Origin: an uncultured delta proteobacterium
Lineage (GTDB): Bacteria; Desulfobacterota; RBG-13-43-22
Direction of reading: 5' to 3'
Assembly: GCA_963790475.1 (NCBI GenBank)
Contig: CAWBOS010000010.1
Location: 736,001 to 800,000, forward strand
Length of the DNA stretch: 64,000 bases
A model generated the notes under the pieces. It saw only the letters and a program-made list of their open reading frames with translations. It was not told the DNA's origin and searched no databases. The translations under genes were made by a program, and so were the position numbers. Shown here piece by piece: positions 4,711-41,000 of the stretch (its first letter is position 1; each line of letters opens with the position of its first letter).

Positions 4711-5601
4711 TTATTTCTTAGGTTTTCCCGTCATTGTGGGATTAATTTCCACCCCGGCGTTTTTTAATGCTTTTTCAATAAATTCACCGACGGCGGCCTT
4801 TCTCATTTCCTGAAGGGCCTGATCTTTTACTTTGTCCTTGATTTTCTCATATGGCTCGAGAACGGCATCCTTCTTTTCCTCCATTTTGATAATATGATAG
4901 CCATATTCGGTCTCTACCAAACCGCTGGTCTCCCCCGGTTTCAAAGAAAATGCCACCTCTTCAAAGGCGGGAATCATGGTTCCCCTGGGGAAAAAATCCA
5001 GGTCTCCTCCTTTATCTTTGGTCCCCGAATCATCGGATACCTCCGCGGCCAATTTAGAAAAATCCTCCCCTCCTTTAACCCTCTTAAGCACCTCTTCGGC
5101 TTTTGCCTTGGCCTTATTCTTTTCCTCCTCGGGGGCTGAGGCCGACGTTTTAATAAGAATATGTTTAACCCGGATCATTTCCGGGGTTTTAAAGACATCG
5201 GGATGATCCTTGTAGTAGGAACGGGCCTTGTCGTCATTGATGGTTATTTTTTCAACCACCTCTTTCTGCAGATACATCGTGGCCAAAAAATTATTGATCA
5301 TCATTTCCTGCTGGTTCCTGATTTCAGCTTTTTTGTCAAAGCCTTTTTTCTTGGCCAGCTGGGAGATGACCGTACTCCGAACAATCTGCATGAGAATGTT
5401 TTCTTTGATCTGGGGATTTTTTTCAATCATTTTCTGCTGTTCCGGCTCATAATAACTGATGACTCTATTTAGGTCGGCCGTGGTAATCGTCTTGTTTCCG
5501 ATTTTAGCCAATATTCCCTTATCTTGAGCCTGGATACCCGGGGATATCGAAATAATTGCCAGAAGCATAACCGCCAAAATCTTCAAAAATCTTAACCTCA
5601 T
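4711..5601 (-). CDS. Exported parvulin-type peptidyl-prolyl isomerase (PrsA/PpiC-like foldase)
   Basis: Signal peptide; [27 protein letters not shown] and [11 protein letters not shown] parvulin motifs. Confidence 0.9.
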
Positions 5602-5642
5602 TTTTTTCTCCTTTTCTTAATTAGAGATGGTAATGAAATGAT

Positions 5643-24970: not shown

Positions 24971-26158
24971 ATGTACCTGACCTCATTTGTTCATCGTGAA
25001 CAACCTTTCGAGATAGCCGAACGCTGGATCTGCGGTCGTCCAGCGGAAGACGACATCCAACGATTCACTGAAATATTGATCTGCGATGGTTTTGTGTTAG
25101 GGGAAATCCTGGAGGACTTTAACGAGTTTTTGCTGGGAACCATTTTTGAAACCCCCTACAAGAAGAAGCGAATTCACTTCAAAGGGGAGTTGAGGGACGC
25201 CTTAAGCCGAAATCCTAATGGCACGACTCCGCGCCTGAGAGAACTTTTTGGACTTTATGAAAAAAATCCCGATTATTTTTACCGCGAAGCCCCCATTAAC
25301 GGTGTCGTCTGCCTGGACGACACTGATCACTTATTAGGGCTATATCGGATCAAACGTTCTAAAAGGATCGCTGAAAAAGCCAACCGCAGGATCGCAAACT
25401 GGATTTTTCAAAAGGTTCAAACAGTGGCCCAGGAGCTGGCCGGCGAACGGGCCAAACAGTCTCATATTCCCCTGGAATGGTTTGTGACTCCCCAAGAGGA
25501 AATGACCCGGGAGTTCATCCGAGCCGAAGAAGAGATCGCCCGAAGTTTTAAAGAATGTCGGATCAAGTTCGACCGATCCGCTCTGACCCTAGATGATGTC
25601 GGTGCGATCAAAGTTATTGCCGATTCCGAAAGATTAAATTTTCTGGAAAAGACTCTGAATGAACACTCGCAGATTCGAGTGATTGAAAAGGAAGATTTTA
25701 AGGGGAATTATCGAGCCACCAACTTGATCCTGGAGATCGGTTGGGATGCCGAGATTGTCTGTCGTACCTATAGAAATGGGCGGAGCTGGGAAAAATATCT
25801 CGACCGGGGAATAGCGGAAGACCAATTAAAAAAAGGTTTGGAGCCATTCCTGGACGGCGCTCAACCGACCCTGATCATTGAGCTGATCCTTTCCACCTTT
25901 TCTGATATGGTGGAATCGGAACTGGGAATAAGTATTCATGAGGAAAGAATCATAACCCAAAGGGGTAATAACAGTTATCGAGGCTATATCCCTATCAATG
26001 TTGAATTCCTGATTGAATACCTTTTTGCAGCAGGTTTCAGCCCGAAGATAAAGATTGACCGGATACCCATAAAACTTTGGGGAAGGTACTTGCCAGAGAC
26101 TCTCAGTTCCTATGTGCGGAGTTTATACAATTTACCGGAGCACGATCTTTATTATTAG
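24971..26158 (+). CDS. Hypothetical protein with degenerate RelA/SpoT-synthetase-like (nucleotidyltransferase) motifs
   Basis: 395-aa ORF; ordered motifs RIKRSKRIAEK, DDVGAIKVI, GNYRATNL, IELILST, ESELGISIH; the CDS is confident, the function tentative. Confidence 0.6.
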   Translation: MYLTSFVHREQPFEIAERWICGRPAEDDIQRFTEILICDGFVLGEILEDFNEFLLGTIFETPYKKKRIHFKGELRDALSRNPNGTTPRLRELFGLYEKNPDYFYREAPINGVVCLDDTDHLLGLYRIKRSKRIAEKANRRIANWIFQKVQTVAQELAGERAKQSHIPLEWFVTPQEEMTREFIRAEEEIARSFKECRIKFDRSALTLDDVGAIKVIADSERLNFLEKTLNEHSQIRVIEKEDFKGNYRATNLILEIGWDAEIVCRTYRNGRSWEKYLDRGIAEDQLKKGLEPFLDGAQPTLIIELILSTFSDMVESELGISIHEERIITQRGNNSYRGYIPINVEFLIEYLFAAGFSPKIKIDRIPIKLWGRYLPETLSSYVRSLYNLPEHDLYY

Positions 26159-26445: not shown

Positions 26446-28104
26446 TTAGAATTCTCTAAAATCTTCTTCCATTGGAATGATCTGTTCGGGGGTGATTTCC
26501 TTATGTTTTGGACTGGGAGAGGAGGCAGCTTTTTTCTCCTTGGAGGCCGAGGCGATCCTGAGTTTGGAATCCCTATTCCCGAAAGATGTTTGGGAAATGG
26601 ACTTGGGGGTGAGACTCCTCCTGACTTGAAGAAGGTGTTTCGGGGGAACAATCTTATACCCATTACCGTTGCCATTCCCTTTCAACACCGCCGCCAACTC
26701 CTTGATGAAACCTTTCAAACGCTCTGCCTGGGCCTTCATTTCCTCAGCCGCGGCAGCTGATTCTTGGGCATTAGTTGTGTTCTTTTGGGTCACCTTGTCC
26801 ATTTCGGCCACTGCCTTACTGACCTGAGATATGCCCTGGGCTTGTTCTTGACTGGCCGCTGCGATTTCATCAATCAGCATGCTGATTTTTCTGGAGATCT
26901 CCACATTTTTATTGAAGGCTTCCTGGGTTGCCAGGGTCAACTCATTCCCGCTTTTGACCGACTTGATCGTATTTTCAATTAAACTGCTGGTGTTTTTAGC
27001 GGCATCGGCCGCCCGCATCGCCAAGTTTCTCACTTCATCGGCTACCACGGCAAACCCGGCCCCGGCCTCTCCGGCACGGGCTGCTTCTACTGCCGCATTC
27101 AAGGCCAAAAGATTTGTCTGGAAGGCAATCTCGTCGATGGTTTTAATAATCTTGCTCGTTTCCTCGCTGGACTTGGTGATTTCTCCGATGGATTCGGCCA
27201 TCTGGGTCATATGATGACTCACGTTTCCCACGATTTGACTGGCCTCCCCCATCATGGCCCTGGCTTGTTGGGCGTTATCAGCATTCTGTTTGGTCATGGC
27301 CGACATCTCTTCCAGAGAGGAAGAGGTTTCTTCGAGTCCGGCGGCTTGTTGAGAAGACCCCTCGGCCAGCGACTGGCTGGCCGAAGAAACCTGAACCGAA
27401 GCACCGGACACATGGTCTGAACCTTCCTTAATACCGGCGACCACCCGTTGGATAGGCCTGGTAATTGAAATGGTTAGAAAAATCCCAAGAGATATCGCTA
27501 ATAAAGTCCCCAGTCCTCCTATGATCCAGGAGAACCAGGAGGCTGCAGTAGCTGTCTTTAAATTCCATTCCATCTTTTTCTGAATGGACCCCGCCTGTAA
27601 ATCAGAAAACTTCTCCAATAAACCAGAGATTTTGTTCGTTTTTGAATAAACCTCATCTTTCAATAAATTCCGAGATTCCTCAAGTTTTCCCTCTATAGCC
27701 AGATTGATCAATTTATCACGCAAAGGAAGGTATTGGATTATTTCTGACTTAAGACCGTCCACGGCCTTCCGTTCCTCTTCTGTTTTAAGGATCTTGGCGA
27801 TCTTATCGGAATTCTCGATCATTATTTGATCCAATTCTTTTATCTTGACAATATTCGTCGAGATCTCTTTGGTGTAAAGAAATTTATCCAAAAGAATATC
27901 CCTGATCAATCCGACGGATTTCTGAAACCCGACGGCCATCTCGGAAATATAAATTTGTGACTTGATATTCTTCTCCTGGATTTCTTTCCCGGCTTTAACC
28001 AGAGCACTTATCTTAGAAATTCCGTTAAATCCGACGATCATAGTAAGGCAGGCAACAATTACAAAACTTCCAATCAATTTGATGCTTAATTTCAGATTTT
28101 TCAT
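26446..28104 (-). CDS. Methyl-accepting chemotaxis protein (4HB_MCP-type sensor)
   Basis: [15 protein letters not shown]-terminus, two TMs, [37 protein letters not shown]; C-terminal EEDFREF tail resembling a CheR/CheB tethering pentapeptide. Confidence 0.95.
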
Positions 28105-28414: not shown

Positions 28415-28630
28415 CTAATAGGCCTCTCTTTTAGCCAGAATTGACCTTCTAATACCGAGATCCTGTTTGTCTTTCGCTCCCCGGATGGTCAGCAGGATTT
28501 CCTCCATATCGAAACGCCAGGAATCCCCCAATCTAAAACCCGGGATCTCTCCGTTACCGGCCAACTTATAGATGGTTGATTCAGAAAGCTTCAAGTATTG
28601 CCCCAATTCTTTAGCTGTAACGATTTTCAC
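28415..28630 (-). CDS. Small excisionase-like helix-turn-helix DNA-binding protein (HTH_17)
   Basis: VTAKELGQYLKLSESTIYKLAGNGEIPGFRLGDSWRF motif; RBS AGGAGG upstream. Confidence 0.85.
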   Translation of the reverse strand: MKIVTAKELGQYLKLSESTIYKLAGNGEIPGFRLGDSWRFDMEEILLTIRGAKDKQDLGIRRSILAKREAY

Positions 28631-28689: not shown

Positions 28690-28710
28690 ATCGGGAAATT
28701 TGCTACTATA

Positions 28711-28826
28711 TGTAAATTACTTTTGCCAAAGGGATGTGCCGGGATGAGGCGAGATGAGGGGGGATAAGTCATTAAAATAATGAAATTTCCAGAATTACAT
28801 GGAAGAAAAGTTTGAATCTGCCAAAA
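28711..28826 (+). repeat. Left end: terminal IR plus degenerate subterminal transposase-binding-like sites
   Basis: TGTAAATTACTTTTGCCAAA; further partial copies TGAAATTTCCAGAA (~28774-28794) and ..TCTGCCAAAA (~28806-28826) resemble the right-end repeats. Confidence 0.7.
28731..28768 (+). repeat. 10-bp-period tandem repeat GGGATG-like x4 just inside the left end
   Basis: GGGATGTGCC GGGATGAGGC GAGATGAGGG GGGATAAG. Confidence 0.75.
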
Positions 28827-28958
28827 ATCAAGATATCTACCCTTCCTTAAAAAATCTAAGAACTCACCATTTTAATCATAAGTATTTAATAAGAAAAGAA
28901 AAACAATCTTTCTCTGAAAAAATAATGGAAATCTTAAATTACATTTTAAAAAAAGTCC

Positions 28959-29004
28959 TTGACAACGAATACTATTATTTAATAAAATACAGCTAAATGT
29001 TTAG
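28959..29004 (+). promoter_or_regulatory. Sigma70 promoter and operator copy 1 upstream of the MerR-like gene
   Basis: TTGACA-N18-TAAAAT overlapping AATACAGCTAAATGTTTAG (28986-29004). Confidence 0.6.
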
Positions 29005-29016
29005 AAGGCTAAATAT

Positions 29017-29623
29017 ATGGATGACCGACTATTTTTAAATAATGAAGTGAGTAAAATAACAGGATTAACCAAAAGACAAGTATTGAGCTGGACGGAAAAA
29101 GGTTTGATTCTCCCAAAGGAGCCAGCAAGAAAAGCTGGCAAGATGCGAGGATACAGTTACGAAAATCTGCTTGAGTTTGGACTAGCAAAGCATTTGATCG
29201 ATATCATAGGCCTGCAATTTTATTCGGTTAATAAAATCCTTGAAGAGATAAGAGAAGATGGCGATTTTAAGGCCTGGGCAAAAGATTATTTTAAATATTC
29301 CTTGAGCTACTCCTATAAAATAAAGAATCAAAAAAAAGAAGAGTTGGTAGGATTCTAATACACAAACAAGAGTAAATGTTTCTCAAAAAAATAAGGGGAC
29401 ACTTTATTATATCTATTCGAACTATCTGAGTGAAAAAGGAGAGTCTTATTTAGAAACCATTAGGCTGATCTCTCCTTGGGGGGTTTTGGATACAGTGAAA
29501 GCCTTTCAACAGGCAGGCCTAAATTCTGAAGAAATAGAAACGACCTTTAAGGATGGTATTATTGTTAATTTGGGTGAGATAAAGGAAGAAATAGACAAAG
29601 GAATCAAAAACATTAAAAAATAG
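29017..29623 (+). CDS. MerR-family HTH transcriptional regulator (probable element repressor); one +1 frameshift at ~29350
   Basis: EVSKITGLTKRQVLSWTEKGLILP..RGYSYENLLEF MerR HTH. The open +1 frame from 29351 (DSNTQTRV...GIIVNLGEIKEEID..) to TAG 29623 would give ~200 aa. Confidence 0.75.
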
Positions 29624-29637
29624 TTTTTTTTGGTCGT

Positions 29638-29659
29638 TATAATACATCTAGATGTTTAG
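29638..29659 (+). promoter_or_regulatory. -10 box and operator copy 2 upstream of the transposition operon
   Basis: TATAAT overlapping AATACATCTAGATGTTTAG with perfect palindrome ACATCTAGATGT; 17/19 identical to 28986-29004. Confidence 0.65.
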
Positions 29660-29685
29660 CTGCCTAATTATATGGAGGTTTTAAA

Positions 29686-29892
29686 ATGAGACTTTGGCTA
29701 AAAGTTAAAATACTGGACAATTATAAAACCCAGCGTGCTTTTGCCGTGTCCTGTTCCAGAACCGAAGACTGGATCTCACGAATAGTCCGGGGAATTAAAG
29801 ATCCGCCTAAAGAAGAAAAAGAACTGATCGCCCAAAAACTTGGTGCCAGCGACCCTGAACAAATCGACCATTTATTCTTCAACAAAGAGTGA
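29686..29892 (+). CDS. Small XRE/Cro-like HTH protein (Ner/Cro-position gene)
   Basis: TQRAFAVSCSRTEDWISRIVRGIKDP XRE HTH; RBS GGAGG; overlaps the transposase start. Confidence 0.8.
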   Translation: MRLWLKVKILDNYKTQRAFAVSCSRTEDWISRIVRGIKDPPKEEKELIAQKLGASDPEQIDHLFFNKE

Positions 29893-31601
29893 AAATGGAT
29901 ATTCCTAAGACCTGGCAAGAGGAAAAGGCAGAGAGGCGGGAAGAGATAGTACGGGAATATCTTGCAGCCGCCGAAACCGTAGCCAGGAAAAACAAAACAT
30001 CGTTTAAAAAGCAATTCGCGAAATTAAAGGGAATCACTTATCGAACTCTCGATAGCTGGGTCCATCTTTTTAAAGATGTTGGACCACGTGGCTTGCTCCC
30101 TGCCGAGAGATCAAGACGAGGATTTTTTGGAAAGAATCCCGACATAGCCCTATCTTTCGAACAAAAGGTTATGCGAAGAAATGGCCTCCTGATCAAGGTA
30201 GCAATAGAGGAAACAATCAAAGAATATCCGGACAGAAATCTTCCTTCTCCTAAAACCTATTATAATTATATGGAATCAAGGTTTGGAAAACCTCTGTTAG
30301 ACATGGTCCAGTCTCCGGAAAAATACGCCAGAGAACATTCCATCCATATAAACAGAGATTGGAATATCGGGATTAATCGGCTTTGGGTAGGTGATACGAA
30401 ACAGTGTGATCTTTATGCTCTACTAGGGAAAAAACCTGTCCTGGTATCATTGGTCGCCTTCATGGATTGTCATAGCCGATTATTCACGGGGTATGTTCTG
30501 ACCGCCTCCCCTAATTCTTTAGAGATAGGCCAAGCATTCTATAATGGAATCATGAAACACGGCGTCCCAAAAGCCGTCCATATTGACAGGGGCAAAGATT
30601 ATAAAAGTAAGTACTTCAGTGGGGAAAAAGGAGAAAAAAATAAGAATCATGAGTTTTTCGATGATCTTGAAAAAACGAGGATTCCAGGAATACTTCGGCA
30701 GCTTAATGTCGAAATTATTCAAGCGGCCCCTTATAACGCCAAAGAAAAATTAATAGAAAGTAATTTCGGATTTTTAACTGAAAGCTTACGTGATGTACCT
30801 GGATACCGGGGGCATAATTTAAAAACTCGGCCAAAAAAGCTTTCCCACGAAATTAAATCTAAAAAACTCCTTTCTTTTGAAGAAGCCTGTCAAGAGATAG
30901 AGAACCGAATTGAAAGACGTAATAATGAAATTAAGCACACGACAACCAAGGAAATACCTATTTCCTTTTATAAGGATTTCGTTCCTCAAATTCCTTCTCA
31001 GGCTTTTCTAAATTATCTCCTCATGGAAGTGCATTTCGTGAAAGCTAGAAACTCCGGCGTTAATATCGATGGTCATTTTTACCGTGGCGAGGATCTCTTC
31101 CCGATCGCCGGTGAGCTGGTCGAGGTTAGAAGAAATCCAAAGGATATAGGCCGCGTGGCTGTCATTCACAAAAACGAATATTTTGGAATGGCCTTTGAAG
31201 AACTGCTAGGCGATCACTGGAGCCAAATAACTCTTCAAAACCGAAATACAGCAAAAAAAATCAGGCGAAAAATCCACAAGATGCAAAAAGAGATTTGGGG
31301 TTGGGAAAATATTACTGATGATCCTCGCCGAATGGAAATTAAAGTTGCTGAAGAAGAGGCCCTCCCAAATAAAGAGGATATTAGTCCGGCTCCAAAATCC
31401 AACGTCATCTCTATTATTGACCCAATAAGGGAAAGAATTTCTCGAAAAATCGATAAGGATTTCAATCAGACTAAAAATGAGTCAGAAGAGGCTCGGGTTG
31501 CTGCCAATGGAGAAAGTAGAAATGTCCTTCCCTCACGACTCTTAAATGCCTTGGGTGGACTTTCATTCGGCAGAAAAAAACCAGACGATGAAGATTTTTA
31601 A
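29889..31601 (+). CDS. Mu A/TnsB-like DDE transposase
   Basis: HTH (GITYRTLDSWV..GPRGLLP), RNase-H core WVGDT, FMDCHSR, VPKAVHIDRGKDY, NAKEKLIESNF; C-terminal Mu-transposase-C-like beta domain (GVNIDGHFY..VEVRRNPKDIGRV). Confidence 0.92.
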   Translation: MKMDIPKTWQEEKAERREEIVREYLAAAETVARKNKTSFKKQFAKLKGITYRTLDSWVHLFKDVGPRGLLPAERSRRGFFGKNPDIALSFEQKVMRRNGLLIKVAIEETIKEYPDRNLPSPKTYYNYMESRFGKPLLDMVQSPEKYAREHSIHINRDWNIGINRLWVGDTKQCDLYALLGKKPVLVSLVAFMDCHSRLFTGYVLTASPNSLEIGQAFYNGIMKHGVPKAVHIDRGKDYKSKYFSGEKGEKNKNHEFFDDLEKTRIPGILRQLNVEIIQAAPYNAKEKLIESNFGFLTESLRDVPGYRGHNLKTRPKKLSHEIKSKKLLSFEEACQEIENRIERRNNEIKHTTTKEIPISFYKDFVPQIPSQAFLNYLLMEVHFVKARNSGVNIDGHFYRGEDLFPIAGELVEVRRNPKDIGRVAVIHKNEYFGMAFEELLGDHWSQITLQNRNTAKKIRRKIHKMQKEIWGWENITDDPRRMEIKVAEEEALPNKEDISPAPKSNVISIIDPIRERISRKIDKDFNQTKNESEEARVAANGESRNVLPSRLLNALGGLSFGRKKPDDEDF

Positions 31602-31613
31602 AGGAGATTTACA

Positions 31614-32591
31614 ATGTCCCCTAAACAGGCGTTAAAGCTGGATTCAATAGATAATCTGAATTCCGAAAATGTGGACAATGTGCGCGCGAGACTTAATTTA
31701 GAAATAAATAAGGGTGGGTCTTCTCAAAATCGTCTTGCCAACAAATCCGGTCTTAGCAGCTCCACCGTTAGCCTGTTTATGCGTAACAAATACCCAGGGA
31801 ATAATCTTGAAATTGCAAAAAAAATAGAACCCTTTTTGGAACCGTTTCTGGAACAAAAAAAGGATGGTCTCGGGTTATCCGCCAAGAATTTCAGAATTCT
31901 CTTAACCAGCATAGCTTTAAAAATGTGGTTTGCCATTCAAATAGCAGACCAAGAGGGCGACATGGTGGCCATTCTTGGTTCAAGTGGAATCGGTAAAACG
32001 ATAGTCTTAGAGGAATATCGACGCCAAGAAGTGAGCCCTATTTTAATAACGGTCAACATAACAACGAGGGCGACAGGACCGGTACTTGACGCGATAGGGC
32101 GTGAATTAGAGATAGGTGTCCGTATAGGCACCCAAAGCCATTTTTTGGCAAAAATTATAAAGTTTCTCAGAATCTCGCCTCGTCTCTTGTTGTTTGATGA
32201 AGTTCATCTTTTATCATGGGAGAGCCTTGAGCTTATCCGGACAATTCATGATGCTGCCCATGTCGGGATCGTCTTTTGTGGTCAGGAGCGGTTTTATGAG
32301 CAGATGCGCGGATCGCGTCGATCCTATCTGTATGATCAATTCTCTTCAAGGATCGGTTGCCTTTGCCGCCTAACTTCAATTGAAAAAAAAGATGTTAGGA
32401 TGCTCTGCGAGGCGATTTATTCAAATCTTGACAATAGATGTTTGGAATTTTTGTTTTCCAAAGCCTCTGGACCGGGAAAATTTAGAGTAATGACTAAAAT
32501 TTTAAAGAGAGCGGTCTTTATCGCTGAAAAAGAAAAAGTTCCCGTGACCTTGGACCTTCTTAAAGAGGCTAATTCACTTCTTCTTCTATAG
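31614..32591 (+). CDS. Mu B-like AAA+ transposition ATPase with N-terminal HTH
   Basis: SQNRLANKSGLSSSTVSLFMRNKYPG HTH, Walker A GSSGIGKT, Walker B LLLFDEVHLL, LELIRTIHD, QFSSRIG. Confidence 0.92.
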   Translation: MSPKQALKLDSIDNLNSENVDNVRARLNLEINKGGSSQNRLANKSGLSSSTVSLFMRNKYPGNNLEIAKKIEPFLEPFLEQKKDGLGLSAKNFRILLTSIALKMWFAIQIADQEGDMVAILGSSGIGKTIVLEEYRRQEVSPILITVNITTRATGPVLDAIGRELEIGVRIGTQSHFLAKIIKFLRISPRLLLFDEVHLLSWESLELIRTIHDAAHVGIVFCGQERFYEQMRGSRRSYLYDQFSSRIGCLCRLTSIEKKDVRMLCEAIYSNLDNRCLEFLFSKASGPGKFRVMTKILKRAVFIAEKEKVPVTLDLLKEANSLLLL

Positions 32592-32600
32592 GAGATTGTT

Positions 32601-32957
32601 ATGGAAATGTCTGTTGAAGCCCGGCAGGTTTTTGATTCCCTTGATGAAAAAACGAAAAGGGTCATTCAGGGAAACTATTCTTTTAAAAAACTCCGGAATG
32701 AAGCTATAGTTGACCTGGGGAAAAAAGGTGTTAATGGACGCCTTTTGGCTGAGATTACCGGCCTTAGTACTTCCAGTGTGAGCCGCATTTTGGAGACGGG
32801 GGGGCAAACGAGATATAAACCCGACAGGAGAGAGGTAGAATTGTGGAAACTCAAGGAAATGATTGATGGACTCTATAAGCGATACAGGCGCTTTATCTTG
32901 GCCAGAGACGAAAGGAAAGGAAAAGGGTTAGGGATGGGTAGGGGGAAGAAGAGTTAA
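32601..32957 (+). CDS. HTH protein, Mor/C-like transcription activator candidate
   Basis: RNEAIVDLGKKGVNGRLLAEITGLSTSSVSRIL resembles the Mor-family RN..I....G.....LA...GLS...V.RI HTH. Confidence 0.6.
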   Translation: MEMSVEARQVFDSLDEKTKRVIQGNYSFKKLRNEAIVDLGKKGVNGRLLAEITGLSTSSVSRILETGGQTRYKPDRREVELWKLKEMIDGLYKRYRRFILARDERKGKGLGMGRGKKS

Positions 32958-32990
32958 ACGTTTTTAAACGGGTTTTAAACGGTTTTAAAT
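32953..32990 (+). repeat. Phased TTTAAAC tandem repeats (~10-bp period)
   Basis: GTTAAACG TTTTTAAACG GGTTTTAAAC GGTTTTAAAT directly before the RBS of ORF 33002. Confidence 0.7.
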
Positions 32991-33001
32991 AGGAGGAAGA
33001 C

Positions 33002-33283
33002 ATGAAGAGTAAAGTAAAGTCTGAAAAAATTATTCAATTTCCCTTAAATCAAAAGATTATAAAACAACAGAAGGAAATGAAAAACTTGATGTTTGTAGAT
33101 AAAGAAAAGGCATATAAATACATTCGATCTGTGTTTGGTTGGGGTGCCTTATTGATAGCAATGGGCAATCACTGGAAATCTCCCGAGATAACTGACTGGG
33201 GAAACAAAATTCAGCTCTTGGGCAAAGAATTGGCAGCATTATTCGATTTTTCAATAGAAGATGTCGGAAAATATTTTATATAG
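33002..33283 (+). CDS. Hypothetical protein (93 aa)
   Basis: RBS AGGAGG; N-terminal KIIQFP motif; no recognised family. Confidence 0.7.
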   Translation: MKSKVKSEKIIQFPLNQKIIKQQKEMKNLMFVDKEKAYKYIRSVFGWGALLIAMGNHWKSPEITDWGNKIQLLGKELAALFDFSIEDVGKYFI

Positions 33284-33293
33284 GTAATCCGAC

Positions 33294-33352
33294 TTGCCCT
33301 GGATAGGCTGATCACCGAAAAGGCGGAAACTCTCACCGCCCTGCCAGGGCAA
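33294..33352 (+). ncRNA. C4/CI-like structured antisense RNA candidate
   Basis: Closing stem TTGCCCTGG/CCAGGGCAA encloses two hairpins, GG-CTGATCA-CC and GGCGG-AAACTCTCA-CCGCC. Loop CTCTCA is complementary to TGAGAG at 33359-33364. Architecture resembles P1 C4 and P4 CI RNAs. Confidence 0.6.
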
Positions 33353-33375
33353 AACAAATGAGAGGCAACTTAGAG

Positions 33376-33412
33376 AGGGTTGCGATAGCCGGATGCTATC
33401 CAACCCTTTTTT
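33376..33412 (+). terminator. Intrinsic terminator/attenuator immediately before the tape-measure gene
   Basis: AGGGTTG-C-GATAGC-CGGAT-GCTATC-CAACCCT followed by a T-run, a few nt before RBS AGGAG. Confidence 0.75.
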
Positions 33413-33426
33413 ATTAGGAGAAGACA

Positions 33427-35766
33427 ATGGCCGAAGTAAAAATTGAAATCACCGCCCAAGATAACACGTCCGGGGTTTTTAAAAACATCCAGGCTTCGAG
33501 CAGCTCCGCCCTTAATACAATGGCCGCCGAAACCAGGAATTATACCGAGGGCAGTAAAAGCCTGGTCACGTCCCTGAAGGAACACTGGATCGCTGCTTCA
33601 GTCGCCGTTTACGGGGCCTGGAGGATGGTGAATGAGGCTATGGACCTGGCCAAGCTCGGGGCCAAGGCCCAGCAATCCGAAGAGTCGTTCCGCACTGTAA
33701 CCAGGGCCTATGGGGAAGATGCCAGCAGTCTTTTAGAAAAGATGAAACAGGTTTCCTCCGGGATGATCGATGACTCGGCCTTAATGCAGAGGGCAGTAAA
33801 AGGACTGCAACAGGGACTAGCCGGAGAGCAGATTACTTCCATCCTGGAAATAGCGCGGACCTCGGCTCGAACGGCTGGGAAGGACGTTGTCGAAGCCTTC
33901 GATCAGATCACCGATGCAACGGCCAATCAGATGACCCGCGGGCTGAAGGCGATGGGTATTGTGGTCGACCAGAATAAGGCTTTTGAAGACCAGGCTAAAG
34001 CATTGGGAACGGTAACAGCCGGTCTTACTGAACAGCAACAATCTCAAGCCCTGGCCAACGCCGTCATCGCTGAAGGCACCCGGCAAATGAAGGCGATGGG
34101 GGATGTTACTGAAAACGCCAGTGAGAAATTTCAAAAAATGAATGCTACGATCACAGGATTTAAAGAGAATGTGGGAAAGGAGTTATTGATCGGGATAGAG
34201 AAAGTCAAAAATATCCCGAGTCTGTTAGGGAAGGGAGCGCTTTTGGCTCTTGAGGGCCTGGGAAATCCAACCGTCGCAATGTGGGCAAATATAGAAAAAG
34301 CATCCGGCGATGCCGCAAAAAAAATAAGTGACGCAGAAAAGGCCTATATAAAGATGATGTTATCTATTCAGCAAAAGGTTGACACCTTTAATTTGCTTAA
34401 GGAGAAGATTAAGGAGGTCACTCTATCTGTTCAGGAATTCGATTATAAAATGCAGGACTTGGATCCCAATGCGAATGAAACGACCAAGAGGATAGCCGAG
34501 ATTACCTCTCAAGTCCAAAAAATGAAGGAGGAGATAAGGAAATCCGTAGGTGAAAATGTCTTGAGCCAACTGGCCCCAAAGATCGACATGGGAGCTATGG
34601 AGGGAATTCGGAATGTCTATAAACAGCAGCTTAAAGACTTCGACGACCTAATACTCTCCATGTCCAATGCCCGCAAGGAAGGGATTATTAAGGACCTAGC
34701 CGAAATCGACAAAACCGAAGCGGATGCATTTAAGAAATTCAGCAATAACCAAACGATGATTACGGCCATTGCCAAGGCCGAGGATCTGGCCCGGATCGAC
34801 AGCCTGAAAAAATGGAAAGATTCCCTGATCTCGATGCACAATGAGGCCATCGCCAAGGCGCGGGAATATTATAAGACGGTGGATGACCTTAATATGGCCC
34901 TGAGCAAGAGTGCCATCTTTATGGATCAGTGGAAGAAGGGATTTCCGACCGACCAGACATCGGTTTTCAAGAATGAACAGCAAAGTCTGCAACTGATCAT
35001 CGATCAGGCCAACAATAACCCTATCGCCGCCAACCTGCAGTCGGCCATGACGGCCATCGAGAGTTTCATGCAGAAGAATAATCAATTGCGGAATGAACTG
35101 GTTGACACTCCCGGGAAAGGGCTGCAATCGATTTTTTCAGATACCGACGCGGCCAATCTATACAATCAATATGCCGGTTTTCAGACTGCCCTGGCCGGGG
35201 TAAGGGACGCGGCCAAATCCGCGGGCGACGCCGAAATGTCCGTGGCCATGCAACTGGCTGATATGATCAAGCCGGTCGACACGGCGATGGATTTATTGAA
35301 ATCAAAATTCACCGATTATGTCGATATGATCTCGGTTCAAAGGCAGGTGACCCTGGACACTTCACCGGCCATCGATTCCATCCAGGCCATAATCACAAAA
35401 ACCACGGAGGCCCTGGGCTATATCCAGCAGCTTGGCCGCTATAATACCTCCTCTACTTCCGCCATGTCCCGTCTGGCGCCCTCGGCTCCGGCTGCCGACG
35501 TGGCGCCTCCTGATTTCCCGGTTACGGCAGTTGGTACTCCCTATGTGCGCCGCTCGGGACTGGCCTGGATCGACCAGGGCGAGCGGGTGATGACTGCCGA
35601 CCAGAATAAATCCTACAGCGGCGGATCGGGAGGAAAGACCTTGAGCTTTTCATTCGGAGATATCCATGTCCATGGAACAAACGACCCCGGCGAAATAGCT
35701 CGCAAGATCATGAAGCCATTGATTTCGGAACTTCGCGAATATAACCATTTAATCGGAGGAAATTAA
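33427..35766 (+). CDS. Phage tail tape-measure-like protein (779 aa)
   Basis: TMP-type N-terminus VKIEITAQDNTSGVF; Ala/Gln-rich helical body with LKAMGIVVD; C-terminal AVGTPYVRRSGLAWIDQGERVMTADQN motif typical of TMP C-termini. Confidence 0.85.
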   Translation: MAEVKIEITAQDNTSGVFKNIQASSSSALNTMAAETRNYTEGSKSLVTSLKEHWIAASVAVYGAWRMVNEAMDLAKLGAKAQQSEESFRTVTRAYGEDASSLLEKMKQVSSGMIDDSALMQRAVKGLQQGLAGEQITSILEIARTSARTAGKDVVEAFDQITDATANQMTRGLKAMGIVVDQNKAFEDQAKALGTVTAGLTEQQQSQALANAVIAEGTRQMKAMGDVTENASEKFQKMNATITGFKENVGKELLIGIEKVKNIPSLLGKGALLALEGLGNPTVAMWANIEKASGDAAKKISDAEKAYIKMMLSIQQKVDTFNLLKEKIKEVTLSVQEFDYKMQDLDPNANETTKRIAEITSQVQKMKEEIRKSVGENVLSQLAPKIDMGAMEGIRNVYKQQLKDFDDLILSMSNARKEGIIKDLAEIDKTEADAFKKFSNNQTMITAIAKAEDLARIDSLKKWKDSLISMHNEAIAKAREYYKTVDDLNMALSKSAIFMDQWKKGFPTDQTSVFKNEQQSLQLIIDQANNNPIAANLQSAMTAIESFMQKNNQLRNELVDTPGKGLQSIFSDTDAANLYNQYAGFQTALAGVRDAAKSAGDAEMSVAMQLADMIKPVDTAMDLLKSKFTDYVDMISVQRQVTLDTSPAIDSIQAIITKTTEALGYIQQLGRYNTSSTSAMSRLAPSAPAADVAPPDFPVTAVGTPYVRRSGLAWIDQGERVMTADQNKSYSGGSGGKTLSFSFGDIHVHGTNDPGEIARKIMKPLISELREYNHLIGGN

Positions 35767-35802
35767 GACTCCGGAATTTTTGAACAGAAGAGGAGGAAAA
35801 TC

Positions 35803-37014
35803 ATGGATCGTATCACCAATAAAAGCCTTTTAAGTGACATCGAGAGGACCTTATTTTATCATGCTCATGGGCAAGGCATGGCCGGAAGAAACGAGGTTGA
35901 TAAGGCGCAGGATGCCCTTATTAAGACCTTTATTCCGGAATACGATGCTGGCGGTCTCGGCGGGTTTAGTGGAATCAGGGAGGCCTATATTCACTTAACC
36001 GGGGATGACGAGTTTAGAGGTAGGGCGGGCTTTAATCTCTCAAGGGTCTCAAGTGGCTTGAGGGCTTGTGCTGATTTTGATTCAGGCACTTTCTCCTTTG
36101 CCCTGCAAAATGCCCTTAATATGTACCTGTCCAAGGCTTATAAGTCCTTTCCTTATCACGAGGAAATATTCATCTCTGAAAAAAAGACGGCCACCGACTT
36201 CAGGACAATCCAGTCCCTTCAGTTGGGGTATCTCGGGGATCTTCCAGATATCGATCCGGAGACAGGCGATTATCAGTCTCTTGGTAATTATGGAGACACC
36301 GAGTCGCAATATAAAATTGGGCAGAAAGGTGGAATCACTTGGGTGACGAGAAAACACGTCATAAATGACTTGGTTGGATTGATAAAAGCATTGCTTGACA
36401 GGAAAGCGCGAGCGGCCAGGAGAACACATGCTAAATATGTCTGGAGCTTTTTTATCAACAACGCTATCTGTCCCGATGGAACGGCATGGTTTACCGCGCC
36501 GCACGGGAACTTAGGGTCAAGTGCCTTGGATTTTGATCCCCTGGCTGCTGCGATCACCGCCCTGGCCGATATGGTGGAACCGGGGTCAGGAGAAAAACTT
36601 GGAATGGACCTTCCCACTTTCAATTGGAATTTAGTTATCCCAGTCGCTTTGTGGAAGTTGGCTGTGTCAAAAAATCAGGCGGAGTATTATTATACCGCAG
36701 CAGATGACTTAACCACCAAAACGGAGAATCCAAATTGCCGGTTGTTTGGGGATCGCAATGAAAGAATTATTATTTGTCCCTTTTTCACAGATCTCAATGA
36801 TTGGGGGGTTATTAGAGATAAGGAGGATGTTCCGATAGTTGAAATGTCTTATCTTAACGGGCACGAGGAACCTGAACTTGTCCTTGCCCATCCTGACGAT
36901 TTACCGGGAACCGAAAGAGGTCTTCATGGTGATGATTATGGCTATAAGATTCGGCATGAATATGGTGGAACCCTGGCTGATCACCAAGGCGGATTTCGGT
37001 CCGTTGTGTCCTGA
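35803..37014 (+). CDS. Mu gpT-like major capsid protein (no fused protease)
   Basis: GIREAYIHLTGD, FSFALQNAL, DFRT..LGYLGDLP, KGGITWVTRKHVINDLVG, ARAARRTHAKYVW, WFTAPHGNL and YKIRHEYGG match the Mu-like gpT capsid domain; RBS GAGGAGG. Confidence 0.85.
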   Translation: MDRITNKSLLSDIERTLFYHAHGQGMAGRNEVDKAQDALIKTFIPEYDAGGLGGFSGIREAYIHLTGDDEFRGRAGFNLSRVSSGLRACADFDSGTFSFALQNALNMYLSKAYKSFPYHEEIFISEKKTATDFRTIQSLQLGYLGDLPDIDPETGDYQSLGNYGDTESQYKIGQKGGITWVTRKHVINDLVGLIKALLDRKARAARRTHAKYVWSFFINNAICPDGTAWFTAPHGNLGSSALDFDPLAAAITALADMVEPGSGEKLGMDLPTFNWNLVIPVALWKLAVSKNQAEYYYTAADDLTTKTENPNCRLFGDRNERIIICPFFTDLNDWGVIRDKEDVPIVEMSYLNGHEEPELVLAHPDDLPGTERGLHGDDYGYKIRHEYGGTLADHQGGFRSVVS

Positions 37015-37037
37015 AAATAATAGTTTCCCAAGGCCCC

Positions 37038-37117
37038 GCCCATAGTTTCCCTCCCGTTCTATGGGCTCCAGGAGGGAGCGGTTTCTGACCCAAAGCAGAA
37101 ATCGCTCTCTACCTGGA
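37038..37117 (+). other. Two adjacent hairpins downstream of the capsid gene
   Basis: GCCCATAG/CTATGGGC (37038-37066) and TCCAGG-AGGGAGCGGTTTCTG/CAGAAATCGCTCTCT-A-CCTGGA (37067-37117); no U-tract. Confidence 0.55.
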
Positions 37118-37131
37118 ATTAAAGGAATCGA

Positions 37132-37554
37132 ATGAAAAAAAGTGAATTTTTAACCAATATTGCCCAAGGATATAATTCTAAAATTGAAACGGTGTTTTTT
37201 TGTAACGAGAAGCGTTTGCCAGATGGTGCCTGGGGTGTGGCAAACGCCCAACCCAACTTGGAATGGTATCGAATCTTGCTTAATGATAAACTTCTTTCCT
37301 GCCCAATCCGCGCCCTTGGGGTCTTGTTCCATGAGCTAGGCCATATTGTTCTGAATCATTTTTATTCGGTGGATACTGAAAGTGAGGAGAGAGCCGCAAT
37401 CGAATGGGCATTTAGGGAAATGGGAACAATCGACCAAGAGGGAAAGATAAAGAAGGAAAACTCCTTTTGCTATGTTTGTATATCTCTCTATTCAAAATTA
37501 TGCCTTAAGAAATTTCATGACCAAATACGACCCCAGAAAAGCAGAACAATATAG
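37132..37554 (+). CDS. ImmA/IrrE-family (HExxH) metallopeptidase-like protein
   Basis: ILLND..LGVLFHELGHIVLNH...EERAAIEWA zincin motif with downstream Glu. Confidence 0.75.
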   Translation: MKKSEFLTNIAQGYNSKIETVFFCNEKRLPDGAWGVANAQPNLEWYRILLNDKLLSCPIRALGVLFHELGHIVLNHFYSVDTESEERAAIEWAFREMGTIDQEGKIKKENSFCYVCISLYSKLCLKKFHDQIRPQKSRTI

Positions 37555-37726
37555 GGGACGGCCACATTCTCATTATCGGAACCAGGGCAAGCATAAATGC
37601 AGGTTATGTGGGAAGAAAACAGACAATCATTGGAACTGCCCGGCTTGCCTGGATAGGATGGCCAAGGGAGAGATTGAATCGCCGGTAACCGATGTCTTGG
37701 GCTATGATCTCGACGTGCCGCTATAG
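37517..37726 (+). CDS. Small zinc-finger protein (CxxC-x9-CxxC)
   Basis: From ATG 37517: ...HKCRLCGKKTDNHWNCPACLDR; last gene before the right end. Confidence 0.6.
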   Translation: MTKYDPRKAEQYRGRPHSHYRNQGKHKCRLCGKKTDNHWNCPACLDRMAKGEIESPVTDVLGYDLDVPL

Positions 37727-37782
37727 ATAAAGGGCCTTTTAAACCCCATTTAATGGCCCTTTTTCCCCCTCCGAATCCCAGT

Positions 37783-37824
37783 TTTTGGAAATTTCAAGTT
37801 ACATTTTGGCAAAATGAAGTTACA
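37783..37824 (-). repeat. Right end: two tandem 21-bp transposase-binding-like repeats ending in ACA
   Basis: TTTTGGAAATTTCAAGTTACA (37783-37803) directly followed by TTTTGGCAAAATGAAGTTACA (37804-37824). Confidence 0.8.
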
Positions 37825-38042
37825 CGTTATAAGAGGGGAATCCGGAAGATCGGCGTATTTTTGGAGATAATCTACCATATATTGTATACATTTTTTAAAT
37901 AGCTCCTTTCTATTGTATTTTTTTCTTTACAAAATGATTTTTTTCATTAAAATTAAAATGAGAATCGAATCGGATGACTGATTGGCAATAAACCGTAATA
38001 AGATAGGTGGACTCCTTTTATATTGGAAGGGAATATTCTAAA

Positions 38043-41000
38043 GTGAAACTTAAAAGATTAGAACTTAATGGATTTAAATCATTTTCAGAAAAGACAGTCG
38101 TTTCTTTCCCCAAAGGGATAAGTGGCGTTGTTGGGCCCAATGGATGCGGGAAAAGCAATATTGTGGATGCCATAAAATGGGTCATGGGAGAACAAAGCCC
38201 CAAGCAGTTACGAGGCAAAGGCATGGATGATGTGATCTTCGCCGGATCCAACGGCAAATCCTCAGTGGGCATGGCCGAAGTCTCCCTGGTTTTGGACAAT
38301 GACAACGGCTCCATCCCCCAAGAATACGCCGATTTCAGTGAGGTGGTTATAACCCGCCGATTGTTCCGGGACGGAGAAAGCGAGTACGCCATTAACAACA
38401 AGGCTTGCCGGCTTAAAGATGTTACTCATTTATTTATGGATACCGGGGTAGGGAGCAAGGCCTATTCGGTTATCGAACAAGGCCGGATCGGGGCCATTAT
38501 CGATTCGAAACCTGAAGACCGCCGACACTGGATCGAAGAAGCTGCCGGTATTTCCAGGTATAAGAGCAAAAAGAACGAAACCTTGCGTAAGTTGGAGCTG
38601 ACTCAACAGAATCTATTACGGGTTGGGGATGTTATCGCTGAAATCAAGAGACAGATGAACTCCTTGTACCGTCAGGCCAAGAAGGCTGAACGTTTTAAAG
38701 AGATCCGGAAACAATCCAAAGAAGTGGAATTAGTTCTATTAGCCAAGGAATATCAAGCGTTACTGGAAGGGAAAGGACTGAAAGAAGAAGAACTTGGCCG
38801 TCAGCAGGAACAAACCGTGGAGCTTAGAGAAGAATGTTATACGCACGAGTCCTCGTTGGAACAGCTTCAAGCGGAGCTAATGGCACTCGAAAGGCAGTTG
38901 AAAGAAAAGCAAGAGCAATTCTACCGGCAAAAGGGTGAGTTGCAGAGCCAGGAGGCCTTGATTCAACAATACCAGAAGGAATTGAAAAATCTTGGAGATG
39001 ATGCCGTTGAAATAGAAAGGGAAGTTAACGAAATCGAACAATGGTTGAATGAAAATGAAGCCAGGGAAAAGGTCCTGGCAGAAGAGGTGACTTCATTTAC
39101 CCAAACGGTGGCCCTGGAGGAAGACCAGGTTCGGGAGAAAGAACTATCACTTTCGGAATCCAAAAAAGAATTGGCCCAAAGTCAGGAACAAGGCGAACAA
39201 ACCAAAGATTTCTTAGTCACCAAGTTGACTGAGCTGACCCAGGTGAGGAATATGCGGGCCGGCTTGGTCAAACTGCGGGAAGATCGGGAGCGTCGGATTA
39301 TTCGTCAGGGTGAAGAGAAAGCGCAGTTAACAGCCCGCTTGGATTTTTTAAATACATCCCTTCTGGATATAGAGACCCGGTTGGCGGTGCAAAGGGAAGC
39401 CCTAAGAGAATTTAAAGAGAAAATAATTCAAGCTCAACAGCAGAAGATCGATATTGAAAAAATCCACAAAACCTTGGAGGGTGAATTAAGCGATTTGGAA
39501 CAGGGCTGGAAACAAGATCAGGCCCAAATCAGGAACCTGCAGGAGATCCGCGACAATTTCCAAAGTTATCAAAATGGTGTCCGAGCTTTGCTTAAGGCCG
39601 AATGGCCTGAAGAGATTAAGGAGTCCCCGACTTTCCGGCAGGTGTTGGTTGAAGGTCTGGAAACCGAACCGGGATGCGAGACGGCCGTAGAAGCAGCTTT
39701 GGGGGAAGCCCTGCAAGCCCTGATGATCCAAGACTCATCGTTCGCTGTTCAAGGAATCGACTATTTGAAAGATCAGGGTCAAGGCCGGGCCACCTTCCTT
39801 CCTATGAAACCTCCTGTATCCTCGATTAAAACAACTCCCGCGCCTTGGGAAGAAAATGGATTGGTTTCCTTATTGTCCAAAGTCTCTGCCCAACGGGAAT
39901 TTGAAGACTGGCTGAAGGTCTTATTAAGTCCTTTTGTTCTGGTTTCGGATTTAAGGGAAGGATTGGAGGTCTGGGGAAAAAACCCCGGGCAGGTCTGCGT
40001 GGTTAGCCTACAAGGAGACCTGATCGACTCCAAGGGGATTATTTCCGGCGGCAGTTCCAGAAACCCGGAGAGCGGCATCCTCTTCCAAAAGAACCTCATT
40101 CATAAACTGGAACTGAAAGTAAGGGATTGGCAGGAAAAGATCGATCAGAAAAAGGAGAGTATCCTGACCACAGAAAAAGACCTCAGTGATCGAATCCATC
40201 AATTCAAGGCCCTGGAGGACGGAAAACAAGAGAAAGAAGAGCTCATCCTGGAATTGGAGAAACGCCTGATCGGCTATCAGGAAGAAACCAAACCCATGCA
40301 GCGCCGGCTTCAATTACTCATTCTGGAAGAGGATGAATATCGGACACAGGAAGAGGATCAGGCCTTGGAAGAACAAGACCTATCCTTACAGGAAGAAACC
40401 CTGAATAAAGAAATTGAGGGGATCAGAGAAGACATTCATGACCATGAAGGAAAAAATAAAATTCTGGAAAACGACCTGGACCAAGAAAGGGAGTCTTTGA
40501 CTCTGGCCTATACCCGGGTGTCGGCCCTAAAGGAAAAGGGAGGACATATTGGACGGGAATGGGAACAATTGAAAGAATCCCTGAACGAAAAACGAAACCG
40601 ACAAAAAAGGCTTTGGGAAAAAATCCAGATCGGAAATCAGGCTCAGGCGGAATTGAGGGAAAAATCATCCTCTGGAGAGGCCTTGATTACGGGTTTACTT
40701 GCCTTGGTCAATGACTTTGAGGCTCAGATCCAGGCCGCTAATCAAAATTGGGAAAAGATGATCAAACAAAAAGAAGACTGGGAAACGGTTTTAAAAGAAA
40801 CCCGGGGTCTTCTGAATGAGGCCGAGCAGCAGGAAAACGAGCATAGAATGGAATTAGCCCAAATGGTGATGAAGATCGATCATGTAAAAGAACAGATTCT
40901 GGAACAGTCCGGACTGCCTGCGGAGGAAGTGGTTTCGACTTATTTAAAAGGCGGTGAAGATCTGGGGGCCTTAAGGGAGAGACGCAGAGAATTTAAAGAA

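Follow-up and report, generated by a model that had tools for sequence, protein, structure and literature searches.

A compact Mu-type transposon with a stand-alone phage capsid gene in an uncultured delta proteobacterium: a candidate satellite of Mu-like phages

To our knowledge, integration by site-specific recombinases is common to all well-studied phage satellites, which for the most part remodel the helper capsid through accessory proteins. P4, the phage-inducible chromosomal islands (PICIs, with the Staphylococcus aureus pathogenicity islands, SaPIs), the PICI-like elements (PLEs) and the PICMIs (minimalist chromosomal islands inducible by phages) use site-specific integrases, replicate as episomes and redirect helper capsids via Sid, CpmAB or TcaP. 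Laboratory mini-Mu derivatives, in which the Mu ends and the A and B genes are placed on a short DNA, are packaged only with helper Mu. Capsid-forming PICIs (cf-PICIs) use a tyrosine integrase and encode all head and packaging proteins, including the portal, head-tail connectors and small terminase. In the preprint on these elements (bioRxiv 10.1101/2022.09.08.507074), they are described as having their own HK97-type capsid gene and no tail genes, and satellite-sized heads are proposed or shown. Here we describe a 9,114-bp element at positions 28711-37824 of a 64,000-nucleotide stretch of DNA (hereafter the window; positions 736,001 to 800,000 of contig CAWBOS010000010.1, assembly GCA_963790475.1) from an uncultured delta proteobacterium. 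The element is an insertion with Mu-type end sites, and its predicted MuA/MuB transposition pair is intact and accompanied by regulators of its own. The virion genes that it carries are a capsid gene lacking the protease-scaffold half and, as in some other members of its family, a tape-measure gene. We favour, with moderate confidence, the reading that it is a phage satellite of full-size Mu-like phages.

The element resembles Mu-like phages (Mu, D3112/B3-type phages, BcepMu and the uncultured ~40-kb phages L061-L065) in its MuA and MuB proteins, its left-end repressor and Ner-type regulators, its ends of repeated transposase sites that are tandem at the right, its Phage_capsid_4 capsid (Mu-like gpT in relatives) and a homologous tape measure; many family members also carry GemA. 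Unlike these phages of about 37-43 kb, it is 9.1 kb long and has no terminase, portal, Mu-F, protease, head-completion, tail tube or sheath, baseplate, fibre or lysis genes. Its capsid is without the N-terminal half of ~460 amino acids (aa), no clean 5-bp target duplication is seen, and it has extra genes for p118, HExxH and Zn-ribbon proteins together with an int-alpA RNA. Like cf-PICIs, it is a small chromosomal element with its own HK97-type capsid gene and without sheath, tube or baseplate genes; unlike them, it has the capsid as its only head or packaging protein, lacks an integrase and would move by MuA/MuB. With P4-like satellites, classical PICIs/SaPIs, PLEs and PICMIs it shares a size in the range of about 7-20 kb, replication and regulation genes of its own and, as we propose here, dependence on helper structural genes with redirection of capsid size. 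It differs from all of these in carrying its own capsid subunit and no integrase. The element also has a DDE transposase of the MuA/TnsB/TniA group and an AAA+ partner in common with Tn7-like and Tn5053/Tn402-like transposons (TnsB/TnsC, TniA/TniB), with weak matches to TnsB and TnsC in PADLOC and to TniB in Pfam, whereas its best matches are phrog_310, phrog_296 and Phage-MuB_C, and its relatives carry GemA, Ner-type and Mu DNA-binding domains. Unlike mini-Mu, which is a man-made deletion derivative with no capsid gene of its own, it belongs to a natural, diversified lineage with its own late genes. Full-text searches of the literature and passages of PMC8705779 gave no P4-, PICI-, PLE- or PICMI-type satellite with a tape measure or a Mu-type transposase, and no description of any satellite or compact natural element combining a Mu-type transposase with a capsid. 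The element represents a widespread, apparently undescribed family of compact (about 9-13 kb) Mu-derived elements with a stand-alone capsid.

The insertion is delimited by comparison with genomes of the same genus. In three of them (G013, G015 and G008) the site is empty, with both flanks lying 102-340 bp apart on one contig; the right flank is present in 13/13 same-genus genomes and the left flank in 7/13. Similarity of the left flank to the empty sites ends near 28701, and the 45 bp beyond 37824 are like intergenic DNA of same-genus relatives. The left end is formed by a terminal transposase-site repeat, TGTAAATTACTTTTGCCAAA (28711-28730, plus strand), which starts with TG and makes a 17/20 inverted repeat with 37805-37824, so that the termini read TGTAAATTAC.../...GTTACA. 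At the right end, two tandem transposase-site repeats 21 bp apart (37784-37824, minus strand) end in CA at 37824; the outer one has three mismatches to the left site and the inner one six (14/20). Taken alone, the 17/20 repeat is no better than chance, being one of 107 inverted-repeat pairs in the region. We accept the ends because of the empty-site comparison and because relatives have the same type of site: TG[C/T]AAA...TTTGCCAAA (also written TG[C/T]AAA..GGTTTTGCCAAA) closes the related elements L115, L059 and L123. Tandem double sites at the right end are also found in L115, in L059 and in a second copy of the element in the same genome (copy 2, locus L006), and four tandem sites are found in genome G148.

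Directly beside the left terminal site lies an array of four ~10-bp repeats of the GGGATG/GAGATG type (28731-28768, plus strand). This ~38-bp array is kept in copy 2 (L006 ~5598-5636) and in L115 (~155-192), whose MuA proteins are only 26-45% identical. With a strict pattern it had no match in viral or genome collections, and a looser 16-base pattern gave 10 viral matches, all without extended likeness. The array may bind a shared factor, either for packaging or as a repressor, and its identification as a pac site or an operator would be a guess. Five metagenome or viral contigs with related elements (L059, L115, L121, L124 and L125) begin less than ~550 bp to the left of the element, and some extend 1.4-3.9 kb to its right. 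These contig starts could be an assembly effect of shared end repeats and are not evidence of packaging.

All genes of the element are co-oriented on the plus strand. The gene at 29889-31601 encodes a MuA-type DDE transposase of 570 aa, which matches Pfam Mu-transpos_C at 33.5 bits (cut-off 21.7) and phrog_310 at 5.4e-56. Residues D169, D233 and E290 are invariant across an alignment of 12 family transposases, and their spacing fits the DDE triad of MuA. The next gene (31614-32591) encodes a MuB-type AAA+ transposition ATPase of 325 aa, with matches to Phage-MuB_C (34.5 bits against a cut-off of 25, 2e-8), AAA_22 (2.3e-15) and phrog_296 (4.8e-49). Upstream of this pair are genes for a MerR-type helix-turn-helix (HTH) regulator of 113 aa (29017-29358; Pfam MerR_1, 1.2e-9), whose counterparts in copy 2 and L115 are 30% and 38% identical, and for an XRE-type HTH protein of 68 aa in the Ner position (29686-29892; Pfam HTH_31, 3.2e-6), 50% identical to that of copy 2 and 57% to that of L115. 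Downstream of MuB, in the position of Mor, is p118, a family-specific HTH protein of 118 aa (32601-32957) that is 87% identical to its copy 2 counterpart and has 13 members in compact elements. Searches of the 11 open reading frames (ORFs) of the element with Pfam, PHROGs and NCBIfam gave no match to an integrase family, the recombinase being MuA, and these searches together with PADLOC gave no TnsA, TniQ or resolvase.

The late region begins with a gene for a helical protein of 779 aa (33427-35766), which we tentatively assign to the tape-measure family. Its only direct family match is phrog_3779 (7.1e-6), with no match in Pfam or NCBIfam, and the assignment draws on a chain of relatives. By BLAST it is 29% identical over ~400 aa (2.5e-33) to the 711-aa protein of L121, which is related to proteins of L120 and L123 (3.8e-113); the latter are 35-44% identical to 939-1,299-aa proteins encoded 7-8 kb downstream of the capsid in ~40-kb phages, and a related 888-aa protein (L091_888) matches Pfam TMP_3 at 7.5e-27. 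The chain likewise reaches proteins that match Tape_meas_lam_C. The tape measures of the elements are 711-814 aa long, except that of L049 (1,255 aa), compared with 843-1,299 aa in related phages.

The next gene (35803-37014) encodes a stand-alone HK97-type major capsid protein of 403 aa without the protease-scaffold half (Phage_capsid_4, 2.6e-25). It aligns solely to the C-terminal halves of families of prohead protease/major capsid fusions, namely to positions 345-630 of 634 in NCBIfam scaf_prot_MCP2 and to 526-890 of 893 in phrog_29592. Its residues 48-403 correspond to residues 464-811 of an 811-aa fused protein with 45% identity, and its first 47 residues are new. It is followed by a gene for a small HExxH metallopeptidase of 140 aa (37132-37554; phrog_87 'metallo-protease', 1.3e-7), in which H67, E68, H71 and four Cys are invariant in 15 members and H76 and E86 nearly so. 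The HExxH protein has no Pfam match, PF06114 of the ImmA/IrrE M78 peptidases included, and its profile found nothing meaningful among PDB sequences; its atlas neighbours are IrrE-like/M78 viral clusters at 0.92-0.93 with few shared features, which we treat as a lead only. The last gene (37472-37726) encodes a Zn-ribbon protein of 84 aa as called, although a start more to the inside of the frame is possible. The protein is a shortened representative of the '198' family, whose 198-aa members are encoded at the right end of other elements; the CxxC...CPxC motif of the window protein aligns with their invariant Cys columns.

Between the early and late genes lies an RNA leader. Positions 33296-33365 (plus strand) match the full length of the int-alpA RNA model (Rfam RF02996) with 47.8 bits against a gathering score of 35.8. 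This RNA reportedly stems from the 2017 Weinberg survey, and we know of no tested function for it. It also scores above gathering in copy 2 and six further clade-A elements (see below), that is at 7/10 loci of one scan, for a total of 8/12 clade-A elements tested and 0/4 full-length phage loci. At gathering score it was not found in L121, L122, L123 and L124 or at two loci of the type found in genome G120. In the window's genome only the window element and copy 2 score above the cut-off. A third, sub-threshold match (32.2 bits) lies at G000:C10:292097-292163 among small co-oriented ORFs unlike the element's proteins, and may be part of another mobile element.

Directly after the leader, positions 33372-33411 (plus strand) form an intrinsic-terminator-like hairpin followed by a T-run, with a fold of -23.4 kcal/mol and a z score of -3.0 for the 161-nt region. 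The succession of int-alpA motif, hairpin and U-run is kept in 8/8 aligned elements, with compensatory changes in 7 of the 27 pairs predicted. The U-run of the window element adjoins the ribosome-binding site of the tape-measure gene. This leaves no room for a promoter past the terminator, and the late operon is therefore expected to be expressed only on read-through or activation. We infer that transcription of the late operon would proceed only by read-through of the terminator, which would offer a natural checkpoint for a helper signal.

An earlier note on this DNA, made from its letters, had read the locus as a Mu-type transposon with matched TGT...ACA ends that encloses regulators, MuA, MuB, an HTH protein, a structured RNA, a terminator, a tape measure, a capsid, an HExxH peptidase and a Zn finger. 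Pfam, PHROGs, NCBIfam and Rfam bear out this gene content and order, and the matched ends are real. Its designation of the HTH protein as Mor-like finds no support from homology: p118 has weak HTH matches only and no Mor match in Pfam or NCBIfam, and we reject it as a Mor homologue. The terminase and portal genes that the note had found missing are indeed absent, since none of these and no Mu-F homologue was matched within the element (Pfam, PHROGs, NCBIfam), and no head-tail connector or small terminase was detected beside the capsid. The note had further proposed to check the same genome for a complete Mu-like helper prophage, and none was found either in tblastn searches of the 6.34-Mb assembly with the head modules of related phages, which gave no terminase, portal or Mu-F, or in a search with a 13-sequence portal profile. 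Pfam portal and terminase searches of the same genome gave nothing above cut-off; PF06074 was blank in control genomes too and is thus uninformative.

The assembly does hold the extra copy that the note had suggested looking for. It contains a single further match to MuA and a single one to the capsid, both on contig C12, where copy 2 keeps the same ten-gene order. The early genes of the two copies are divergent (MerR 30%, XRE 50%, MuA 26% and MuB 37% identical) and the late genes are more alike (p118 87%, tape measure 60%, capsid 73%, HExxH 73% and Zn-ribbon 86%). Contig C10, which carries the window, and C12 have the same G+C content and a tetranucleotide correlation of 0.988, which fits one organism; the contamination estimate of the assembly is 9.68%.

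Beyond this genome, the capsid is found in 1/21 genomes of the order, the window's own, and in 9/401 genomes of a phylum sample at E <= 1e-8. Searched with a capsid alignment, species genomes yielded 9 loci (record titles name Deltaproteobacteria, Syntrophaceae and Geobacteraceae), IMG/VR 57 and metagenomes 65; a single-protein capsid scan of the genome contigs collection gave no match. In G148 and G039, which belong to another family, a leftward repressor is followed by Ner-like, MuA, MuB, p118 and GemA genes, three small ORFs, a capsid 63% identical to the window's, HExxH and a 198-aa protein, with mraZ-mraW-ftsL next after the element. The closed genome G120 has a repressor, MuA, MuB, GemA, small ORFs, a 440-aa capsid and a 740-aa protein that matches Pfam Tape_meas_lam_C above cut-off, and then host genes. 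Syntenic elements are also present in a Syntrophaceae metagenome-assembled genome, IMG/VR contigs and metagenomes. The elements sit upstream of smc (window), of a response-regulator gene (copy 2) and of mraZ (G148/G039), and further at a ribonucleotide reductase gene (L059) and at tRNA genes (L049/L124). The recurrence with conserved order at different insertion sites that the note had named as support for a family is observed, and it extends to different hosts; the family is old and spread over several host families.

Members without further large cargo have similar sizes, by mapped or approximate ends: 9.1 kb for the window element, 9.6 kb for copy 2, 9.1 kb for L115, 8.9 kb for L059 and ~9.3 kb for G148. 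These five thus fall within 8.9-9.6 kb despite different gene content. Larger members are L123 (~10.9 kb) and G120 and L049 (roughly 12-13 kb). In the same-genus genomes G148 and G039 (loci L016 and L017) the element occupies the same place upstream of mraZ, with homologous junctions. Their capsids are 93% and their HExxH proteins 92% identical, but identity falls to only 49% for MuA, and the subterminal sites are not the same. Such divergence of MuA beside similar capsids indicates that the early and late modules have different histories, and the early module of this element seems to have been exchanged in place.

Labelling of all ORFs at 137 loci by jackhmmer profile gave 100 distinct capsid ORFs, of which 24 were stand-alone (370-519 aa, away from a contig edge), 68 fused (600 aa or more) and eight truncated or otherwise unclassifiable. 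Wherever a stand-alone capsid had at least 4.5 kb of upstream sequence, MuA or MuB was found within 9 kb (16/16; 15 scored by our own profiles for MuA or MuB, and G120, locus L018, by PHROGs), and a portal or Mu-F was found in none (0/16). The fused capsids with at least 3 kb upstream gave the opposite picture, with a portal in 42/46, Mu-F in 41/46 and MuA/MuB within 9 kb in 0/46. A MuA gene lies near one end in 5/5 viral records of ~38-43 kb with fused capsids, which identifies the full-length relatives as Mu-like transposable phages. Profiles of HExxH and of p118 match 0/5 full-length phage records, indicating that the elements are not simple deletion products of the sampled phages. A small '108' protein, encoded just upstream of the capsid in phage head modules, is kept in many family members.

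A quick IQ-TREE capsid phylogeny of 64 rows, from which L093 and L106 are to be ignored as ORFs cut by contig ends, places the capsids of the window, copy 2, G148, G039, L060, L048, L058, L059 and L049 in one clade (clade A; SH-aLRT, an approximate likelihood-ratio test, 100), whose sister group is made up of five phages with fused capsids, L061-L065. A second small clade (95), that of the G120-type capsids, falls among the fused forms, and the capsid of L088 stands apart. These separate clades of stand-alone capsids indicate that the protease-scaffold half was lost more than once. In L157 (8858-11000, with portal and Mu-F upstream) and L169 the protease-scaffold and capsid parts are separate ORFs in head modules of otherwise full-length type, so the fusion boundary is labile in phages too. 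On the 5.4-kb viral contig L088 (2149-4822), a 437-aa stand-alone capsid is followed downstream by a Mu-F-like gene, which is a third reduced arrangement. In a collection of 5.8 billion proteins, 153 clusters (at 90% identity) match the capsid at E <= 1e-30. The 120 matches listed are 270-429 aa long and 48-100% identical, and none of these has an informative name; the best fused forms are only 48% identical to the window's capsid. From these numbers it follows that the family is probably missed or mis-scored by prophage and satellite finders.

Twelve clade-A elements have a whole late region (window, L006, L016, L017, L049, L059, L060, L115, L117, L123, L124 and L125). The capsid and a Zn-ribbon/198-type protein are present in 12/12 of them and HExxH in 11/12, L049 being the exception. 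The note had treated the tape measure as a defining gene. It occurs in only 4/12 complete late regions: the window and copy 2 have it ahead of the capsid, L049 and L123 behind it. Two further cases are the fragments L120 and L121. This gene is optional cargo. Nor does the element supply just the two size-setting proteins that the note had envisaged, since the core also includes the HTH protein, the int-alpA RNA with its terminator, HExxH and the Zn-ribbon protein. Comparison of the window with copy 2 by the Nei-Gojobori method gave ratios of nonsynonymous to synonymous substitution rates (dN/dS) of 0.12 for the capsid, 0.16 for the tape measure, 0.19 for p118, 0.33 for HExxH and 0.31 for the Zn-ribbon protein, with dS saturated for the longer genes. 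The capsids of G148 and G039 gave 0.146 at an unsaturated dS of 0.26. These ratios indicate that the late genes are under purifying selection.

How might such an element live? As a satellite of full-size Mu-like phages, it would insert and replicate by MuA/MuB transposition. Its late operon of tape measure, capsid, HExxH and Zn-ribbon genes would stay behind the int-alpA leader and terminator until opened by read-through or activation, for which the trigger is plausibly an infecting Mu-like helper. The truncated capsid, together with the portal, terminase, head-completion and tail proteins of the helper, would then build heads small enough for a ~9-kb genome, and the element's tape measure would replace the helper's in tails. 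We tentatively suggest, as a possibility that falls somewhat short of probable, that the elements form the first family of transposable phage satellites to be recognised. Such satellites would use Mu-type transposition instead of an integrase and an episome, would make their own small heads from a capsid without the protease-scaffold half and would gate their late operon by the int-alpA RNA and a terminator opened only by a Mu-like helper; some lineages would swap in a shorter tape measure and so change the stolen tail.

Several points weigh against the satellite reading, in which helper dependence is inferred. A helper-type portal was detected by the portal profile in 0/6 carrier genomes (G000, which is the window's, G148, G039, G120, G413 and G414), with 4/4 controls positive; a missing helper prophage, however, does not argue against a satellite that awaits an infecting helper. 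The searches gave neither a terminase small subunit nor a recognisable pac site. What a satellite would gain from a tape measure is not obvious, and most members lack one; the members of ~11-13 kb mean that a single capsid size is not evident. A clean 5-bp target duplication is absent at the window element, copy 2, L115 and L059: the bases at the ends of the window element are CTATA and CGTTA, and moving the right end by 2 nt gives just imperfect AT-rich matches, explicable by chance, in the window, copy 2 and L115 and none at L059.

The lack of a helper prophage in 6/6 carrier genomes would also fit a defence element that interferes with phage assembly. In this case the transposon would ride on other vehicles, unpackaged, and the truncated capsid and tape measure would be decoys that poison the assembly of Mu-like phages and protect the host. 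A capsid without the protease-scaffold half is what a dominant-negative subunit might look like, the late genes are under purifying selection, and prophage-encoded blocks of virion assembly are known (PMC10884400). On the other side, PADLOC detected no known defence system in the element beyond weak TnsB/TnsC and peptidase-motif matches, and the occurrence of the elements in several host families, with early and late modules in mosaic, calls for a vehicle that carries them efficiently from cell to cell. Since interference with the helper is known from satellites too, a defence role overlaps with the satellite reading and does not exclude it. As an explanation in its own right we consider it unlikely.

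The absence of portal and terminase genes from both element and genome could instead mean that the element is a self-contained transposon whose capsid serves some purpose other than helper-assisted virions, for example as a portal-less shell, encapsulin-like or gene-transfer-agent-like, to the benefit of the element or the host. Encapsulins are such HK97-fold shells without a portal. However, the nearest relatives of the capsid are true phage capsids in terminase-portal-MuF head modules, many members keep the '108' protein of such modules, and no recognisable cargo-type gene is present, which makes this explanation decidedly improbable. Finally, all recognisable genes have Mu-like phage relatives and the capsid is related to phage capsids, as would be the case for a decaying remnant of a full-length Mu-like prophage from which deletions removed most virion genes and whose remaining ORFs are intact by chance. 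The same reduced architecture, however, was found in 16/16 stand-alone capsid loci with enough flank; clade A is monophyletic, old and at most 48% identical to any fused form; dN/dS is 0.12-0.33; the transposase triad and both ends are intact; and the family-specific genes and RNA are missing from the sampled full-length relatives. Given the recurrence at different insertion sites and in different hosts, the separate capsid clade, the purifying selection and these additional genes and RNA, we regard a remnant as very unlikely and close to refuted.

The remaining features of the locus bear less directly on these questions. The best sigma-70-like promoter match (11/12) lies at 28959-28988 (plus strand), just upstream of the MerR-like gene, and is a consensus match alone. 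Between p118 and the RNA leader is a 93-aa orphan ORF (33002-33283, plus strand), for which jackhmmer over all fetched loci finds only itself; its position in copy 2 is taken by a 111-aa short member of the '187' family (6.2e-17). This family was considered as the detached scaffold domain of the fused capsid and rejected, as there was no signal (hhalign probabilities 0.3 and 0.1). To the left of the element lie a chemoreceptor gene (26446-28104, minus strand) and an HTH_17 gene (28415-28630, minus strand), and to its right smc (38007-41615). The HTH_17 gene was rejected as a leftward repressor of the element; it is a host gene, since the empty sites have it too. A 395-aa ORF (24971-26158) upstream of the chemoreceptor gene has no Pfam or PADLOC match. 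The element has a G+C content of 43.5%, with 38.9% in its early half (28711-33283) and 48.3% in its late half (33427-37726), compared with about 48.5-49% in the large contigs. This split agrees with separate histories for the early and late modules.

The family is common in anaerobic Thermodesulfobacteriota and in Syntrophales-type metagenomes. If the satellite reading is true, replication by transposition would be a new way for a satellite to parasitise a phage, and helper-dependent, Mu-style transduction of host DNA beside many insertion sites would be predicted. The family would also provide a natural experiment on how HK97-type capsids set head size with and without a fused protease-scaffold domain, and gating of a late operon would be a testable function for the orphan int-alpA RNA.

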